In this document: piece by piece, positions 4,009 to 28,185 of the stretch
Layout: each line of letters starts with the position of its first letter
Numbering within the stretch: position 1 is the stretch's first letter
Assembly (NCBI GenBank): GCA_963772365.1
Contig: CAVYXA010000001.1
Location: forward strand, 352,001-416,000
Origin: an uncultured Verrucomicrobiae bacterium
GTDB taxonomy: Bacteria; Verrucomicrobiota; Verrucomicrobiia; Chthoniobacterales; UBA10450
Length of the DNA stretch: 64,000 bases
Direction: 5' to 3'
Translations under genes and position numbers: made by a program
The notes under the pieces: model-generated
The model's input: only the letters and a program-made list of their open reading frames with translations
Databases searched by the model: none
What the model was told of the DNA's origin: nothing

Positions 4009-4048
<40 letters not shown>

Positions 4049-12622: not shown

Positions 12623-12695
<73 letters not shown>

Positions 12696-13381
12696 CTGTT
12701 TATTTTCGATTTTCGATCGGGGATTTGCGATTCTCGATCTTGTGCAATCACTGGCACCCCGGCTGGAACAACGCGAGGAATCGGTTGAGTTGCGCGACTG
12801 GCCACGGGTTTGAAGTCACCGGCAGTGTATCCATTTCTCGCTCCCTGGTGGATATCGTCGGCCATTGCTTATTGGTCAGGACAGCCCCGGGGGTGCGGGG
12901 AGCTCCCACGAAAGCTTTCAGGGGATTGCCGACAGCGCTCGCTTTTACCTGGGCGAGGTCGGGCGCGAGCGAAGCAAATCCTCGCGAGACATCGAGTCCA
13001 GTAGGTTTTCAGCTATGACGCCGAGCGAGTGAGGGAGAATTCAGCGTCCATTTTGGGGCGAATCCTTCGCGGAATGATCTTTGCTCTATGTTGGATCGCC
13101 GCCGAGCCAGGCGCCGCCGTTTCTTGTGTTATCAGGCCAGAACGATGCGGCCAAACTTTACCGGGTTGTGAAGAAGCTGTGAAAAAGTTGACTTTTTACG
13201 TGAGAAAGTTTTGACATCGAGGCCCAATATCTGGAATAATAGCGCGTGTTGAAAAAATTCATCCCACAGAAACCGATGTCCGGCGATCAGCGAAGGATCG
13301 TCGAACTCGGCCACCGATGATAGCAACCGATTCGCGTTTCGCGAACAACCAAGAACATCCACAACCGATTACCAAAAAACT

Positions 13382-23337: not shown

Positions 23338-24781
23338 AACTTCATCCGACGGACGTCCTTCTGCGCCCGGATAATAAGCGCGTAGTCGTGCGCCCCTTTA
23401 TCTCAACCGATCCTGCACGGGTAGAACATATCATCGCCCGCGCTCTTACGCTCAGCGAGTCGGAAACCGACAAACAGCTCGCGTTAGTTCGAGCGGATTT
23501 TGGCGAGAGACATGTCGACCTTGATAAAAGTTGGCTACGGCACTTTGAAAAGGTGCGAGCACAGGTTCCCAACGGTAAAACGATTTCCAAAGCACGCCGG
23601 CTATTCATTGGTGCTCTTTTTTCCGGCGAGTACGCACTCGAATCGACCGCATTATTTAATCCCTCGATTATTCCGCACCCCGACCAGACTGGTTTAAGGC
23701 AGGGTGAACTCCGTTTTATCTTAGCCTCCGCTCGACCGGGGAAGGTCATATCTCATCGATCCAGTTTCGAGCCGGTGTGGTCCGTCGTGATCACTCAGTC
23801 CGGATCGAGAAAACGACGCCTTTCGTAACACTGCCGGAGCTTAATCCCAATCCGGCCTACCATAAACGCACCTTCCTGGACAAACTGAGCGAGATGGGGC
23901 TGGAGAACGATTGGGCCGCGTCAGTCATGGGAAGATTAGGAAAAACTTTTCTGTTTGACGAACTGGTCGAGTCCATTCAACAAGCAGCACCGGACGAGGC
24001 TTCCTCACAAGCGCGTGACGTGCAGCGAACTTTGGAATGCATGCACTGGCTCGCGGAATCCAACTACGAAATTCATTTCAAATCTTCCTCACAAATATCG
24101 GAACGCATTATCTTTCCGGTCTCGTCTAACGAGAGCAATGGGATTGAGGACGCCCGTTTTGTTCGATTTGTCGAAGACGATGGTAGCGTAATCTACTACG
24201 CGACCTACACAGCTTACAACGGCCGAGTCATTCTCCCGCAGCTGATCGAGACCGCGGATTTCCTGCACTTCCGTGTCCTGACCCTTAACGGACAGGCGGT
24301 GCAAAACAAAGGGATGGCGCTCTTTCCCAGACGCATAAACGGGTATTACGCTATGCTTTCGCGACAGGACGATGAGAATCTCTTCCTCGCCTTTTCCGAC
24401 AACCCGCATTTTTGGAGTGACCCAGAGCTACTACTAGACCCTCGCCAGCCGTGGGAGTTCGTAAAGCTGGGCAACTGTGGTTCACCAATTGAAACCGAAG
24501 CTGGCTGGTTGGTTCTCACTCACGGCGTCGGTCCAATGCGGAAGTATTGCATCGGAGCCATCTTGCTTGACCTGCACGATCCCGCCAAAATCATTGGACG
24601 ACTCAAAGAGCCGCTCTTAAGACCGGAAGGCAGTCAAAGGGAAGGCTACGTGCCAAATGTGGTTTATTCCTGTGGTTCCCTCGTCCACAACGGGCAACTG
24701 ATGCTGCCTTATGGCATCAGCGATACAGATTCTGGCATTGTCAGAGTAGAGCTAAATGAGCTTTTGGCTGGCCTTATCTAA
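23334..24781 (+). CDS. GH130-family glycosidase/phosphorylase, one frameshift
   Basis: ALFNPSI, NGIEDARF, NKGMALFP, GNCGSP, EGYVPNVVYSCG. Confidence 0.85.
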
Positions 24782-24912
24782 GAGGAGCGCTCTTCCAAAT
24801 ACCGCTTCTTACTGATCTATTCGTTCCCGCAATCCGCAGTCGTGTCATTCGACTTTAACCGTAAAATCCTCGAAACGGCTTTTGTCGGAAGAAGCTGGAG
24901 TCGAGCCAGTTA

Positions 24913-24987
24913 TGGCTCCAGAGGTAGGATTCGAACCTACGACCAATCGGTTAATCCCGACTGTGTCGGGACTCTAGCACTGAGCTA
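24913..24987 (-). pseudogene. tRNA-Asn pseudo-copy with hairpin substitution
   Basis: 24913-24954 is identical to the tRNA-Asn 3' part; tcccgactgtgtcggga replaces cagccgaccg; D-arm remnant present; 5' acceptor strand absent. Confidence 0.85.
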
Positions 24988-25241
24988 GGTTTATATCTGA
25001 GCAACTCCTTTCGGATTCTACGGGCAGATTTCCATGATTTGATTTCGCGTTCGCGACGCATCGCGCTGGACCTGTCGGGATAATCTTCGACCCAAGCCAA
25101 AGTCCAGGGCCCGTTCTTACGAGTAAATTTGCCCAGGATCCTATCCGTTCGATTGTGGCTTAAGATTCTTTGGGGGACGTCATCGGAATGGCCGATGTAG
25201 AATCTGCCGACTGGATTTTGGAGAATGTATACCGCAAACAT
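24951..25241 (-). CDS. small GIY-YIG nuclease family protein (96 aa)
   Basis: AVYILQ...FYIGHS..V.QR...HN...FT...GPW...A..RE.EIK; starts 8 nt after the tRNA-Asn CCA. Confidence 0.9.
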   Translation of the reverse strand: MFAVYILQNPVGRFYIGHSDDVPQRILSHNRTDRILGKFTRKNGPWTLAWVEDYPDRSSAMRREREIKSWKSARRIRKELLRYKPSSVLESRHSRD

Positions 25242-25249
25242 GAAAAATT

Positions 25250-25324
25250 TGGCTCCAGAGGTAGGATTCGAACCTACGACCAATCGGTTAACAGCCGACC
25301 GCTCTACCACTGAGCTACTCTGGA
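25250..25324 (-). tRNA. tRNA-Asn (GTT)
   Basis: TCCAGAGTAGCTCAGTGGTAGAGCGGTCGGCTGTTAACCGATTGGTCGTAGGTTCGAATCCTACCTCTGGAGCCA. Confidence 0.95.
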
Positions 25325-25377
25325 TCGCTGATTGAGATCGGTCGTATATTTGTCCAGCGTTTCTCTCCAAGCAACTG

Positions 25378-25429
25378 CCAATCGGTTAATCCCGACTGCA
25401 TCGGGACTCTACCACTGAGCTACTCTGGA
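25378..25429 (-). pseudogene. 5' portion of tRNA-Asn with hairpin substitution
   Basis: Acceptor 5' strand, D-arm, TCCCGATGCAGTCGGGA and TTAACCGATTGG; T-arm missing. Confidence 0.85.
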
Positions 25430-25536
25430 TCGTGTTTCGCCCGATGAGCGGGCTGAATCTTGCGCAGAGGAGTGCGCGCAGCAAGTGATTTGGTTGCGGG
25501 GGGCGGATTTGAACCGCCGATCCGGCAGCTGCCGGA

Positions 25537-25800
25537 TTATGAGCGGCGAACCCTAGGAAAACCCGTAATTGCGTAAAAGCCCGCTCCTCTGCCTTGTCGT
25601 TTCAATCGGTTCTCCATCTTCCTAGCGTCGCTCAGCAACATCGGCTCGCTCTGCCAGACCATCTTCCAGGGACCGCGTCCTTTGGTCCAGCGGGATTCGC
25701 CGGAATTGTGTTGGCGCGTTCTTCTTTCAACATCATCGGTAACTCCAACATAAAATCTGCCCGTGTCATTTTGAAGGACGTAGACCCGGTAAGTTACCAA
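25537..25800 (-). CDS. small GIY-YIG nuclease (87 aa, divergent C-terminus)
   Basis: YRVYVLQ...FYVGVT.DV.RR...HN...WTK.RGPW...AR..E..LK. Confidence 0.85.
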   Translation of the reverse strand: MVTYRVYVLQNDTGRFYVGVTDDVERRTRQHNSGESRWTKGRGPWKMVWQSEPMLLSDARKMENRLKRQGRGAGFYAITGFPRVRRS

Positions 25801-25860
25801 AGCGCCAGAAAATTTGGTTGCGGGGGGCGGATTTGAACCGCCGATCCGGCAGCTGCCGGA

Positions 25861-26121
25861 TTATGAGCCATCCCGATGCAGACCTGTCATCGCGTAGAAG
25901 CCCGAGCCTCTCCCTTGCCGCTTCAGCCGGTTCTCCATTTTCCTTGCTTCGCCTAGAGTTATCGGCTCGCTCTGCCAGACCATCTTCCAGGGACCGCGTC
26001 CTTTGGTCCAGCGGGATTCGCCGGAATTGTGTTGGCGCGTTCTTCTTTCAACATCATCGGTAACTCCAACATAAAATCTGCCCGTGTCATTTTGAAGGAC
26101 GTAGACCCGGTAAGTTACCAA
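25861..26121 (-). CDS. small GIY-YIG nuclease (86 aa)
   Basis: Same GIY-YIG motifs; TTG start; array unit. Confidence 0.85.
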   Translation of the reverse strand: MVTYRVYVLQNDTGRFYVGVTDDVERRTRQHNSGESRWTKGRGPWKMVWQSEPITLGEARKMENRLKRQGRGSGFYAMTGLHRDGS

Positions 26122-26181
26122 AGCGCCAGAAAATTTGGTTGCGGGGGGCGGATTTGAACCGCCGATCCGGCAGCTGCCGGA

Positions 26182-26442
26182 TTATGAGCCATCCCGATGC
26201 AGACCTGTCATCGCGTAGAAGCCCGAGCCTCTCCCTTGCCGCTTCAGCCGGTTCTCCATTTTCCTTGCTTCGCCTAGAGTTATCGGCTCGCTCTGCCAGA
26301 CCATCTTCCAGGGACCGCGTCCTTTGGTCCAGCGGGATTCGCCGGAATTGTGTTGGCGCGTTCTTCTTTCAACATCATCGGTAACTCCAACATAAAATCT
26401 GCCCGTGTCATTTTGAAGGACGTAGACCCGGTAAGTTACCAA
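26182..26442 (-). CDS. small GIY-YIG nuclease (86 aa)
   Basis: Identical protein; array unit. Confidence 0.85.
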   Translation of the reverse strand: MVTYRVYVLQNDTGRFYVGVTDDVERRTRQHNSGESRWTKGRGPWKMVWQSEPITLGEARKMENRLKRQGRGSGFYAMTGLHRDGS

Positions 26443-26502
26443 AGCGCCAGAAAATTTGGTTGCGGGGGGCGGATTTGAACCGCCGATCCGGCAGCTGCCG
26501 GA

Positions 26503-26763
26503 TTATGAGCCATCCCGATGCAGACCTGTCATCGCGTAGAAGCCCGAGCCTCTCCCTTGCCGCTTCAGCCGGTTCTCCATTTTCCTTGCTTCGCCTAGAG
26601 TTATCGGCTCGCTCTGCCAGACCATCTTCCAGGGACCGCGTCCTTTGGTCCAGCGGGATTCGCCGGAATTGTGTTGGCGCGTTCTTCTTTCAACATCATC
26701 GGTAACTCCAACATAAAATCTGCCCGTGTCATTTTGAAGGACGTAGACCCGGTAAGTTACCAA
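26503..26763 (-). CDS. small GIY-YIG nuclease (86 aa)
   Basis: Identical protein; array unit. Confidence 0.85.
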   Translation of the reverse strand: MVTYRVYVLQNDTGRFYVGVTDDVERRTRQHNSGESRWTKGRGPWKMVWQSEPITLGEARKMENRLKRQGRGSGFYAMTGLHRDGS

Positions 26764-26823
26764 AGCGCCAGAAAATTTGGTTGCGGGGGGCGGATTTGAA
26801 CCGCCGATCCAGCAGCTGCCGGA

Positions 26824-27084
26824 TTATGAGCCATCCCGATGCAGACCTGTCATCGCGTAGAAGCCCGAGCCTCTCCCTTGCCGCTTCAGCCGGTTCTCCA
26901 TTTTCCTTGCTTCGCCTAGAGTTATCGGCTCGCTCTGCCAGACCATCTTCCAGGGACCGCGTCCTTTGGTCCAGCGGGATTCGCCGGAATTGTGTTGGCG
27001 CGTTCTTCTTTCAACATCATCGGTAACTCCAACATAAAATCTGCCCGTGTCATTTTGAAGGACGTAGACCCGGTAAGTTACCAA
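26824..27084 (-). CDS. small GIY-YIG nuclease (86 aa)
   Basis: Identical protein; starts 14 nt after the tRNA-fMet CCA. Confidence 0.85.
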   Translation of the reverse strand: MVTYRVYVLQNDTGRFYVGVTDDVERRTRQHNSGESRWTKGRGPWKMVWQSEPITLGEARKMENRLKRQGRGSGFYAMTGLHRDGS

Positions 27085-27098
27085 AGCGCCAGAAAATT

Positions 27099-27175
<77 letters not shown>

Positions 27176-27258
27176 GGGTCAAGATTGCAGAATTCACCGC
27201 GAAATCAACCATCCACAGGCTTCGAGATTAGGTTGAGAGATTTTTCTCTTCGCTCAGA

Positions 27259-28185
27259 ATGACAACTATGGGAGATAGAATCCTGGTTGGCACCGCGAGC
27301 TGGTCCGATCCGGGATTTGTTCAGCATTGGTATCCGAAACGGATGCCTGCGGGTGAGCGCCTTGGGTGGTACGCGCAGCATTTCGAGCTGGTCGAAGTGA
27401 ATTCGACGTTCTATTCCGTGCCCGAGCCGCGTTTGGTCGAACGCTGGTGCCGGAGTACTCCGGATCCATTCACTTTCGACGTAAAGCTGCACCAACTGCT
27501 TTCCCGTCACTCCACGGCTTCGAAATTGTTGCCGCCAAACCTGCAGAAATGCGCCGAAATCGATTCAAAAGGAAAAGCAATACTGACGCCTGAACTGGAA
27601 GAGGCAATGATCAACGACTTTTTGCCTTCGCTGTCGATCTTTCGAAGCTCGGGAAAGTTGGGCGCACTTCTTTTGCAGCTCTCCCCCGCGTTTTCTCCAC
27701 GCCAAAACAAGTTGGTCGAACTTGAGTCGATCATTGAGAAGCTGCGCGGTTACGAGCTCGCGATAGAATTTCGCAATCGCAATTGGGCGATCGGAGATCA
27801 ATTAGGATCGACCATTGAATTCCTGCGGGATCGGAACGTGGCCTTTGTGAATGTCGATGCTCCAAAGTCCGACCATTTCACGGTCCTGCCATCCGACCTT
27901 GATGAAGTGACAAACCGCAGCATTGCGTATTTGCGCCTGCATGGCCGCAATGCCCGGGCTTACGTTACGGGCAGGACCGTGGCCGCGCGGTTTAATTATG
28001 ATTACGGCGATGAGGAAATTGGCGAGATCGCCGAGCGAACCAAATGCCTTGCGAAAAATGCGGCAACGGTCCACGTCGTGTTCAATAACAACGCGCTCGA
28101 TTACGCCCCGCGCGCTGCGGCTCGTTTGCGCAAAGCGCTCGGACAGATCGTGCCGACGATCCCGGAAACGGCGGAGTTATTTTGA
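27259..28185 (+). CDS. DUF72 domain protein
   Basis: VGTASWS, VEVNSTFY, EFRN, YLRLHGRN, VFNN. Confidence 0.9.
   Translation: MTTMGDRILVGTASWSDPGFVQHWYPKRMPAGERLGWYAQHFELVEVNSTFYSVPEPRLVERWCRSTPDPFTFDVKLHQLLSRHSTASKLLPPNLQKCAEIDSKGKAILTPELEEAMINDFLPSLSIFRSSGKLGALLLQLSPAFSPRQNKLVELESIIEKLRGYELAIEFRNRNWAIGDQLGSTIEFLRDRNVAFVNVDAPKSDHFTVLPSDLDEVTNRSIAYLRLHGRNARAYVTGRTVAARFNYDYGDEEIGEIAERTKCLAKNAATVHVVFNNNALDYAPRAAARLRKALGQIVPTIPETAELF

Follow-up and report, generated by a model that had tools for sequence, protein, structure and literature searches.

The 64,000-nt stretch of DNA analysed here (the window: positions 352,001 to 416,000 of contig CAVYXA010000001.1, assembly GCA_963772365.1) comes from an uncultured Verrucomicrobiae soil bacterium of the Chthoniobacterales, whose genome amounts to 3.35 Mb in 6 contigs and holds 48 tRNAs. 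At one place in the window an intact tRNA-Asn gene is followed almost immediately by a small open reading frame (ORF) for a GIY-YIG nuclease, and both are enclosed by disabled pieces of another tRNA-Asn sequence, every feature lying on the minus strand (Table 1). The resident tRNA gene has been broken in or near the anticodon arm, and its 5' part (positions 1-26) and its 3' part (positions 35-76) are each bordered by a 17-nt GC hairpin; enclosed by the two hairpins are a spacer, an entire replacement tRNA-Asn and the nuclease gene. The host has a working tRNA-Asn only through this arrangement, which we call the cassette and which is the subject of this work.

Table 1. Features of the tRNA-Asn cassette and of the adjoining tRNA-fMet array, in window coordinates
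Feature	Position	Strand	Basis
Intact tRNA-Asn(GTT), the genome's only tRNA-Asn	25250..25324	-	ARAGORN; Rfam tRNA 74.6 bits
8-nt spacer AATTTTTC, from CCA (ends 25250) to ATG	25242..25249	-	sequence
96-aa single-domain GIY-YIG nuclease ORF, including stop	24951..25241	-	ORF call; Pfam PF01541 E 7e-15
D-arm remnant TAGCTCAGTGCTAGAG within the ORF tail	24972..24987	-	repeat comparison; one change vs tRNA-Asn D-arm
Right hairpin TCCCGACacaGTCGGGA, 17 nt, within the ORF tail	24955..24971	-	sequence; DNA fold
Exact copy of tRNA-Asn positions 35-76 (native 3' part)	24913..24954	-	42/42 identity to 25291..25250
Stop TAA, equal to T36-A37-A38 of the 42-nt copy	24951-24953	-	
Orphan 5' pseudo-copy, nt 1-23 of tRNA-Asn (native 5' half)	25407..25429	-	23/23 match
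Left hairpin TCCCGATgcaGTCGGGA, in place of tRNA positions 27-34	25390..25406	-	sequence; DNA fold
TTAACCGATTGG, tRNA positions 35-46, after which the pseudo-copy breaks off	25378..25389	-	repeat, 86% to downstream remnant
Cassette-borne spacer 5' of the intact tRNA, 53 nt	25325..25377	-	flank comparison
Intact initiator tRNA-fMet heading the array	27099..27175	-	ARAGORN, Rfam
Five tandem 321-nt fMet units	25488..27098	-	ORF calls, repeat comparison

The nuclease gene is the sole ORF of the unit, in which no integrase was found, and it does not end before the tRNA remnant begins. Its last 22 codons lie outside the nuclease domain, pass through TAGCTCAGTGCTAGAG and TCCCGACacaGTCGGGA and stop at the TAA of TTAACCGAT, so that the translation terminates in KPSSVLESRHSRD. 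An earlier note, made from the letters of the window and a list of ORFs, had described a 96-aa GIY-YIG ORF 8 nt behind tRNA-Asn that reads through a D-arm remnant and a 17-nt hairpin (encoding SSVLESRHSRD) and is followed by a perfect tRNA-Asn 3' part; this description proved correct in every detail, the 3' part included, though it lacked the upstream hairpin-bearing piece (25429..25378) and the Lys unit described below. A perfect repeat of 42 nt at a distance of 337 nt is far beyond chance. Folded as DNA, the right hairpin reaches -6.9 kcal/mol (z -3.6; 2 of 200 shuffles were equally good) and the left one -7.0 kcal/mol (z -3.5). The tRNA remnants are devoid of the acceptor 5' strand and, between 24600 and 27500 at E<=0.1, Rfam reported only the two uninterrupted tRNAs (Asn and fMet), did not score the remnants as tRNA and found no intron ribozyme. 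The spacer 5' of the intact tRNA contains TTGCTT ... AAATATAC, a possible promoter; a strict promoter scan of 24700-27400 did not list this site or any other on the minus strand, including the stretch between tRNA-Asn and the ORF, and its plus-strand matches are repeats within the fMet units.

The same design is found at two other tRNAs of this genome. Next to the Asn cassette, an initiator tRNA-fMet heads an array of five units (Table 1), each composed of an 86-87-aa GIY-YIG ORF that terminates at GGCTCA-TAA, the sequence GGCTCATAA, a hairpin TCCGGCAGCTGCCGGA and a 30-nt exact copy of the tRNA-fMet 3' end, the hairpin and the copy coming after the stop; four of the units hardly differ, and the distal one shares 91% identity with the others. 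On contig C6, tRNA-Lys(TTT) carries a third unit, in which a 5' pseudo-copy with the hairpin CCCCGAAAGCTTTCGGGG and 7 further nt, a 31-nt spacer, the intact tRNA-Lys(TTT), a 10-nt spacer, an 82-aa GIY-YIG ORF and, finally, AGAGCAG with a hairpin of the same kind and a 32-nt exact 3' copy succeed one another. The tRNA-Asn, the 77-nt tRNA-Met and the tRNA-Lys(TTT) are present in one copy each. Other traces of this kind of organisation are scattered over the genome. At tRNA-Val(CAC) (C3:636800-637060) an ORF-less nest consists of a 5' pseudo-copy with hairpin GTCGCCGCCGGCGAC, the intact tRNA and, about 35 nt after it, a 3' remnant bearing GTCGCCGCGGCGAC, as if a cassette had been lost there and left a scar. 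The genome contains the Lys-type hairpin CCCCGAAAGCTTTCGGGG in 13 places (e.g., C5:314318-314353, C1:275821, C3:409235, and C2:30102), several of which adjoin tRNA genes (Gln, Gly-GCC, Ala-CGC, Ser-TGA), and upstream of the tRNA-Gln gene it is joined to a 19-nt copy of the tRNA-Gln 3' part.

The Asn protein is matched by the Pfam GIY-YIG family over residues 2-74 (cut-off 22.6 bits). It belongs to the GIY-YIG superfamily, Y5, Y15, G17, R25, H29, and E64 being invariant in 15 tRNA-linked relatives and N30 being retained in at least 90% of them. With the catalytic Tyr, Tyr, Arg, His, and Glu conserved, the nuclease gene looks catalytically intact and its product is predicted to be active. The Asn and fMet nucleases are clearly distinct from one another, sharing only 36% identity over 67 aa. 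Among solved structures, the best chains for the profile are the UPF0213 proteins 1zg2 (E 3e-16) and 1ywl (E 3e-13), and SLX1. In NCBIfam the Lys protein had only a sub-threshold match, to a group-I-intron endonuclease, and the Asn and fMet proteins had no match at all; at E<=1e-3 no PHROGs family was matched by the nuclease proteins of the window, and the phage records yielded only 16 matches to them, all below 40% identity. A free-standing GIY-YIG gene (125-aa frame) lies elsewhere in the genome, at C3:612865-613089, between inverted GTCATTCCGAGCGAAGTCGAGGAATCCC-type repeats; a similar GTCATTCTGAGCGAAG word stands just 5' of the tRNA-fMet of the window (about 27245-27270), and related words, enclosing TCCCGC or TCCGGC hairpins, are scattered across the genome.

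The presence of a complete tRNA between two halves of another has led us to wonder which of them is native. G001, a genome of the same genus, has its tRNA-fMet and tRNA-Asn separated by a 62-nt spacer and carries no nuclease unit at either tRNA, although this genome is distant from the one studied here (72% nucleotide identity in the neighbouring gene). The native fMet-Asn spacer of G001 can be recognised in the window, where it separates the orphan Asn 5' half from the last fMet remnant. The 60 nt preceding the orphan score 31, 28, and 26 against the native spacers of G001 and of loci L173 and L005, as compared with a median of 7 over 81 loci, while the 60 nt 5' of the intact tRNA-Asn score 7 against G001 and 33, 22, and 18 against loci L170, L171, and L174 (median 7), where the matching spacer also comes after a hairpin pseudo-copy. 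The chromosomal tRNA-Asn is therefore now in two pieces, namely the orphan 5' half and the distal 3' copy, and the intact tRNA-Asn, its upstream spacer, the nuclease gene and both hairpins arrived between the native halves. By the same token, the native tRNA-fMet 3' end is the most distal copy of the array, because the native spacer comes directly after it. In two further loci (L003 and L004) the tRNA 3' end proximal to the ORF has no encoded CCA and the distal remnant has one, so that the proximal 3' part is element DNA. The otherwise empty site of G001 contains, after the CCA of tRNA-Asn (L033), a decayed copy of another terminal repeat and of an ORF N-terminus; the intact counterpart is a 100-aa GIY-YIG ORF in genome G043 (L023), enclosed by inverted terminal repeats of about 36 nt (CCATTCGACGCG...TTGCTCATGGCC). 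An assembly artefact was rejected as the origin of the design, which is also present in single-contig genomes (G244 and G347) and in chromosome-level records (L213 and L214). Among public sequencing runs, none contained more than 0.10 of the words sampled from 24700-25480, and that share is probably just the tRNA.

The cassette belongs to a family whose distribution is patchy and crosses phyla. A first survey covered 61 relatives, including two unpublished genomes on which no other result rests: 26 of the 61 match the Asn protein, and every close match (60-71% identity) is found 6-11 nt after a tRNA-Asn, with the same remnant. Within the bacterial family, the Asn-type nuclease occurs in 5 of 37 genomes at E<=1e-25. 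A profile of the 15 tRNA-linked proteins (Asn-, fMet-, Lys-, and Pro-linked), run on 301 genomes sampled from the phylum, found matches in 129 of them at E<=1e-10, many being at contig ends. The phylum set assembled from these results comprises 154 loci with 174 GIY-YIG units, that is, the loci returned by the searches together with 100 of the 107 top-listed profile places that had no locus, after two loci of the unpublished genomes, four overlapping loci and seven loci of G001 DNA had been dropped. An intact tRNA on the same strand stands at most 300 nt upstream of 82 of the 174 units, 11 are further copies of arrays, 6 are mirror-image units (the ORF first, then a tRNA within 150 nt) and 75 are without a tRNA in range; from 48 tRNAs in 3.35 Mb we estimate that only about 0.2% of positions would qualify for such linkage by chance. 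About 20 tRNA types are targeted, among them Asn, fMet, elongator-type Met, Pro, Arg, Lys, Leu, Ser, Tyr, His, Cys, Gly, Glu, Gln, Ala, and Val, and a 3' duplicate of at least 15 nt is retained in 51 of the 93 tRNA-linked units. From two tRNAs, Asn and fMet, the earlier note had proposed an element family with tRNA-specific variants rather than a one-off duplication; the Lys unit and the spread over the phylum bear this out.

Beyond the phylum, an alignment of eight Asn-clade proteins was scanned against one genome per species, and the 600 candidate stretches contained at least 537 relatives of the Asn-clade nuclease, of which the best 80 were analysed in detail. These best 80 belong mostly to Verrucomicrobiota (Chthoniobacterales, Candidatus Udaeobacter, and Opitutales), the rest being from Planctomycetota, Acidobacteriota, Desulfobulbaceae, Leptospirales, Fimbriimonadales, and one Synechococcus metagenome-assembled genome. 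An intact tRNA-Asn lies within 300 nt in 55 of the 80 loci, drawn from Verrucomicrobiota, Planctomycetota, Acidobacteriota, Desulfobulbaceae, and Leptospirales; three others are probable tRNA-Asn arrays, two loci are at tRNA-Val, one each at tRNA-Ile, at tRNA-Met and at an odd tRNA call, 14 have no tRNA and three are cut by a contig start. The hairpin pseudo-copy upstream of the intact tRNA is likewise recurrent: it was found in 19 of the 51 Asn loci with enough upstream sequence, two copies being stacked in three of them (L178, L211, and L237), and 17 of the 82 loci of the phylum set have an upstream copy of part or the whole of their tRNA. Decayed ORFs were seen in the first copy of L004, in L219, in L232 and in others.

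Other arrangements of small GIY-YIG genes were met with in the course of these surveys. In the mirror-image design (L012 of genome G017, L062, L097, L110, L113, and L152) a 5' pseudo-copy with hairpin, the ORF, a repeated upstream flank and the intact tRNA (Pro-TGG, Pro-CGG, Ser-GCT, Val-CAC, or Gly) follow one another, and the 5' side rather than the 3' side of the tRNA is restored. A separate clade of 90-116-aa GIY-YIG ORFs starting with M/V-FYVYVL (L008, L009, L011, L013, L014, L018-L021, and L026) is not at a tRNA and is flanked by REP-like CCGCGTAAAAGGCTTCGCCTCACGCGG-type hairpins; in L008 and L021 the unit seemingly splits frames resembling an integron integrase (KLLDQV... upstream and ...TTMIYTHVLN downstream).

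The hairpins offer a second view of the family. From the Asn-clade loci we collected 127 hairpins of the form GAG-TCCCG...CGGGA-TTAA, which are non-independent samples and in which the outer five pairs are nearly invariant. Pairs 6 and 7 vary on both sides of the stem, as GAC/GTC in 75 cases, GGC/GCC in 14, GAT/ATC in 11, GAA/TTC in 4, and GAG/CTC, GGT/ACC, and GCC/GGC in single cases, with three wobbles, and 49 different loops were counted. The stem is conserved through compensatory changes. The TCCCG-type hairpin persists where an Asn-clade nuclease sits at Ile or Val (L245 and L247), and it is also present in Opitutales despite the differing sequence of their tRNA-Asn anticodon stem. The other nuclease clades have hairpins of their own, namely ATCCGGC or ATCCCGC after position 38 in the fMet clade, ATCCGCC in a second Asn clade, GTCGCC in place of the whole anticodon arm in the Pro clade, CCCCGA in the clade that unites Lys, Met, and Arg units, and 9-bp stems in the T arm in a clade found at Asn, Cys, Tyr, and Pro. 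The type of hairpin thus goes with the nuclease clade rather than with the tRNA. The position of the junction within the tRNA also varies by clade (35, 39, 44, 47, 56, or 63), and in some remnants (L050, L051, L056, L048, and L049) two hairpins are present, one of them in the place of the T loop.

Our phylogeny analyses suggest that nuclease and tRNA identity are linked without being bound to each other. Trees were computed from the first 85 residues, excluding the tail encoded by the remnant, with one row per locus and tRNA (78 rows, 28 states). FastTree required 40 changes of tRNA label as compared with a mean of 57.4 and a minimum of 52 in shuffles, and a quick IQ-TREE search gave 40 as compared with 57.5 and 53, the statistics ignoring kinship and overstating independence, as kin carry the same labels. 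The fMet clade comprises 21 rows (FastTree local support 99), and the Asn clade of the window 10 rows (support 95) that cover two classes; a second Asn clade with an fMet-like junction (L006, L007, the plus-strand copy of L004, and L075) and a Pro clade also belong to the tree. An 11-row clade (support 99) unites the Lys unit of this genome with elongator-Met and Arg(CCT) units, all with (G)CCCCGA-type hairpins. The 7-row clade at Asn, Cys, Tyr, and Pro(CGG), with short branches and support 99, indicates tRNA switching, and the link between clade and tRNA is therefore not strict. Uniting all 17 Asn-linked rows, a grouping chosen after the first tree, costs 99.9 log-likelihood units (p-AU 4e-6); since these rows do not form one clade, different nucleases took tRNA-Asn independently. 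The expectation that nuclease clade would track tRNA identity held as a tendency, with some switching.

A similar answer was obtained for the stop codon. That the Asn and fMet ORFs both stop on the TAA of the anticodon-loop remnant, as first noticed from the letters alone, is plainly visible, and stops are not placed at random with respect to the remnant; as a common rule the T36-A37-A38 stop fails. Among the best 80 loci it is the anticodon-loop TAA directly after the hairpin in 20, the TAG of the D-arm GGTAGAG with the hairpin next in 15, the TAG of T8-A9-G10 in 11, a codon inside the hairpin loop in 5 and elsewhere in 29. The fMet clade ends at GGC(T/G)CA-TAA in 18 of its 21 rows (by eye; L030, L054, and L055 are the exceptions). 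Of the 48 units of the phylum set whose tRNA has TAA at 36-38, only 15 use that stop, 45 of 93 units are at tRNAs that do not have it, and the ORF of the Lys unit stops at a TGA 5' of the remnant although tRNA-Lys has TAA at 36-38. The general rule is that the ORF enters the tRNA remnant and ends at whichever in-frame stop the remnant supplies. An enrichment of the targets for TAA at 36-38 (48 of 93 units as compared with 13 of the 48 tRNAs of the genome) was considered and rejected on account of a sample biased by its profile; 40 of the 48 units at such tRNAs are at tRNA-Asn or at tRNAs with a CAT anticodon.

How does the cassette compare with known systems? Closest to it is the Ssn family, site-specific nucleases of single-stranded DNA with NTS/SRM hairpin repeats (Chenal et al., Nat Commun 2025, PMC11893778). 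Its members are GIY-YIG proteins of 94 aa with one domain, and cognate hairpins stand on either side of their genes. In that paper, Ssn is reported to bind its hairpin in single-stranded DNA only and to cut a few nucleotides 5' of it, the sequence of the stem being important and the identity of the loop not (PMC11893778). The nuclease of the window resembles what is described there in its single GIY-YIG domain, its similar size (96 vs 94 aa), the lack of an extra DNA-binding domain and its position between inverted-repeat hairpins that co-vary with the nuclease, in a hairpin-gene-hairpin layout reminiscent of insertion sequences; the hairpins at 25406..25390 and 24971..24955 bracket the whole module of tRNA and ORF. 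The cassette differs from the Ssn described there in that its hairpins are within split-tRNA pieces and enclose a whole tRNA gene, the word tRNA occurring 0 times in the main text of the paper (PMC11893778), and in that the published Ssn-related motif (SRM) does not match its hairpins. Ssn is assigned to the family cd10448; the nearest solved chains of the window nuclease are UPF0213 proteins and SLX1.

In its behaviour at tRNA genes, the cassette recalls SegB of T-even phages, a free-standing GIY-YIG homing endonuclease that is encoded in a tRNA gene cluster, recognises a conserved motif of tRNA genes and, according to the reports on it, drives homing and tandem amplification of tRNA-containing segments (PMC2330249, PMC13096335). 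Both are GIY-YIG nucleases among tRNA genes, and the amplification of segments resembles the five-unit fMet array. SegB differs in being a phage protein with a 27-bp double-stranded recognition site, and the descriptions cited mention neither hairpin-disabled tRNA remnants nor a replacement tRNA. By sequence, the proteins of the window are not Seg-like: the Asn nuclease is of one domain and 96 aa, with the PHROGs and phage-record results given above. SegB has about twice that length and includes a DNA-binding part. Group I introns that encode homing endonucleases also occupy the anticodon loops of bacterial tRNAs, for instance cyanobacterial tRNA-fMet with I-Ssp6803I; like the cassette, they invade an essential tRNA gene at the anticodon arm, target the initiator tRNA and possess a device that preserves tRNA function, but the cassette carries a replacement tRNA or part of it, involves no RNA splicing and contains no ribozyme according to Rfam. 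In integrase-borne islands, too, an intact tRNA marks one end, and the opposite end bears a direct repeat of the tRNA 3' part; the cassette is only about 0.5 kb long, has no integrase, and has hairpins that replace arms and an upstream 5' pseudo-copy. IS200/IS605 elements and the REP/RAYT systems likewise tie a small enzyme to hairpins recognised in single-stranded DNA and spread in the genome, and differ, according to the Ssn paper, in using HUH transposases with covalent intermediates (PMC11893778). A GIY-YIG hydrolase cannot join DNA, and copying must therefore rely on host recombination. Our literature search retrieved no description of bacterial chromosomal tRNA genes that harbour small GIY-YIG genes along with remnants disabled by hairpins, most subscription journals being outside its coverage. 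By analogy, the cassette most likely combines an Ssn-type hairpin nuclease with SegB-like behaviour at tRNA genes, and the tests applied here establish it as a member of neither.

Taken together, these observations make it highly probable that the element is a mobile or selfish insertion cassette. Our preferred explanation, which we hold with measured confidence, is that of a compact selfish cassette copied by recombination into the single-copy tRNA-Asn gene and equipped with an Ssn-like hairpin nuclease. It is tempting to hypothesize how such copying might proceed. Read-through from the tRNA would provide a low level of nuclease, which may recognise its own hairpin or an arm of the tRNA gene in single-stranded DNA and nick next to it; homologous recombination would then mend the break, with the duplicated conserved tRNA pieces serving as homology arms, and the repair would copy the cassette into empty tRNA genes or alleles that arrive by DNA transfer. 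At loci already occupied, misaligned repair could give rise to tandem arrays, such as the five fMet units, and to the stacked pseudo-copies of L178, L211, and L237. We regard this nuclease-triggered copying, in the form described, as evenly poised between right and wrong.

Several points weigh against this explanation and its mechanism. The activity of the nuclease, its cut site and the transfer are all predictions. The occupied allele retains an intact tRNA gene, and a cassette whose nuclease is aimed at that gene would confer no immunity; if the nuclease is aimed at the hairpin, the opening of an empty tRNA gene is left unexplained. Plain unequal crossing-over, with no nuclease involved, can by itself produce the four identical fMet units. 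The published SRM motif, written as a regular expression, has 18 matches in the genome, none of them at the three cassettes, and its 10 matches on contig C1 compare with 15-20 in shuffles. The correlation between clade and tRNA may stem in part from vertical inheritance of old insertions, and its sample contains non-independent kin and was collected with a profile of Asn-, fMet-, Lys-, and Pro-linked proteins. Finally, many of the 75 units without a tRNA are other types of small GIY-YIG elements; 7 of the 75, counted as cut by contig starts, begin less than 150 nt from the start of the fetched stretch.

Could the nuclease instead serve the host? A domesticated module might cut incoming single-stranded DNA that bears the hairpin, or guard tRNA genes, the remnants being regulatory or decoy sites. 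tRNA genes are hot spots for integrating elements, and the part duplicated here, from the anticodon or T loop to the 3' end, is the part that integrases use as attachment site; in addition, the catalytic residues are kept over long distances. In N. meningitidis, according to the Ssn paper, Ssn and its hairpin reduce the integration of transforming DNA, and its authors suggest domestication (PMC11893778). A host function, however, needs neither the splitting of a tRNA gene nor its replacement, the family is patchy even within one bacterial family and faces an empty site in the same genus, and the arrays, decayed copies and ORF-less scars resemble the life cycle of a parasite; we thus consider domestication unlikely. 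A role at the RNA level appears to us more improbable still. The nuclease gene would be co-transcribed with the tRNA, whose 3' processing would free a near-leaderless mRNA, and the hairpin and remnant would act as stabiliser, terminator or processing signal in a duplication made for expression. The 8-nt spacer without a promoter-like site, the hairpin at the 3' end of the ORF and the preservation of stems while loops vary, which is also compatible with RNA structure, all agree with it. It leaves the upstream hairpin pseudo-copies, the hairpins that replace T loops and the empty sites unexplained, the remnants have no acceptor 5' strand and no Rfam tRNA score, and in other classes (L042 and L065) a terminator stands between tRNA and ORF. 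Such expression can nonetheless coexist with a selfish, recombination-copied cassette.

The remaining alternatives concern the origin of the duplication itself. An intact tRNA followed by an insert and a direct repeat of its 3' end is the classic signature of an island, and repeats of this sort occur at other tRNAs of this genome, 10 to 38 kb apart, which might suggest a miniature integrative element mobilised in trans by a tyrosine integrase, with the tRNA regenerated at one junction, a partial 3' copy left at the second and the nuclease as mere cargo. The unit consists of one ORF and contains no integrase gene, D-arm sequence is kept 5' of the junction, hairpins replace arms, the upstream pseudo-copy has the same hairpin and the position of the junction varies among nuclease clades, all of which makes this origin very improbable in our eyes. 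Least credible of all, we find it scarcely conceivable that ordinary local duplication, by slippage or unequal crossing-over, took place next to an unrelated small nuclease gene by chance: four of the fMet units are indeed nearly identical tandem copies, but the same design recurs at three tRNAs here, in 129 of the 301 genomes of the phylum and in other phyla, and the intact tRNA has a foreign flank. No single rival accounts jointly for the upstream pseudo-copies, the foreign flank, the empty site and the spread across phyla.

The idea of a selfish cassette may be carried one step further. The module bounded by the hairpins (hairpin, promoter-bearing tRNA, nuclease, hairpin) could be an autonomous mobile element that operates by way of single-stranded DNA and overwrites the anticodon arm of an essential single-copy tRNA gene and replaces the gene. 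The host would then depend on the tRNA of its parasite, and the loss of the cassette would be lethal unless recombination restored the gene exactly; the element would be defined by the specificity for its hairpin and not by a DNA-binding domain, and the conserved tRNA halves would be its universal landing pads across phyla. We put this forward as a tentative proposal that we doubt somewhat more than we believe.

Some repeats of this genome stand apart from the cassettes. A dispersed repeat, TGTCATG-TCCGCCACGGCGGA-TTCGTCCTGTGG, is a hairpin with conserved flanks found at no fewer than 12 places (e.g., C1:250538, 417305, and 532680), at none of which a linked GIY-YIG gene was seen. In the window, positions 4010-4048 repeat exactly 39 nt from the 5' part of the 74-nt tRNA-Met; this copy is 8.6 kb upstream of the gene itself (12623-12696), and the copy and the gene may be the two ends of an inserted island. 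The tRNA-Thr(TGT) gene (C4:369-443) has two 40-nt copies of its 5' part, at C5:1430-1469 and C5:43495-43534, each followed by the same sequence of about 60 nt; they are likely the ends of integrated or repeated elements. For tRNA-Glu-TTC and tRNA-Val-GAC, 3' copies were found 10 kb and 38 kb, respectively, from the gene.

GIY-YIG proteins with one domain and about 90 aa rank among the most frequent "hypothetical nucleases" of bacterial genomes, and Ssn in Neisseria is, to our knowledge, the only one whose biological role is known. If the explanation favoured here is true, many of these small proteins would be the engines of a minimal selfish element that lives in the most conserved genes, carries the spare parts with it and has crossed phyla. 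Such elements would account for many tRNA "pseudogenes" and fragmented tRNA annotations, as well as for assembly breaks at tRNA loci, and the matched pairs of nuclease and hairpin could broaden the set of programmable cutters of single-stranded DNA. Beside introns and integrases, the cassette would represent a third route into an essential RNA gene that leaves the host alive.

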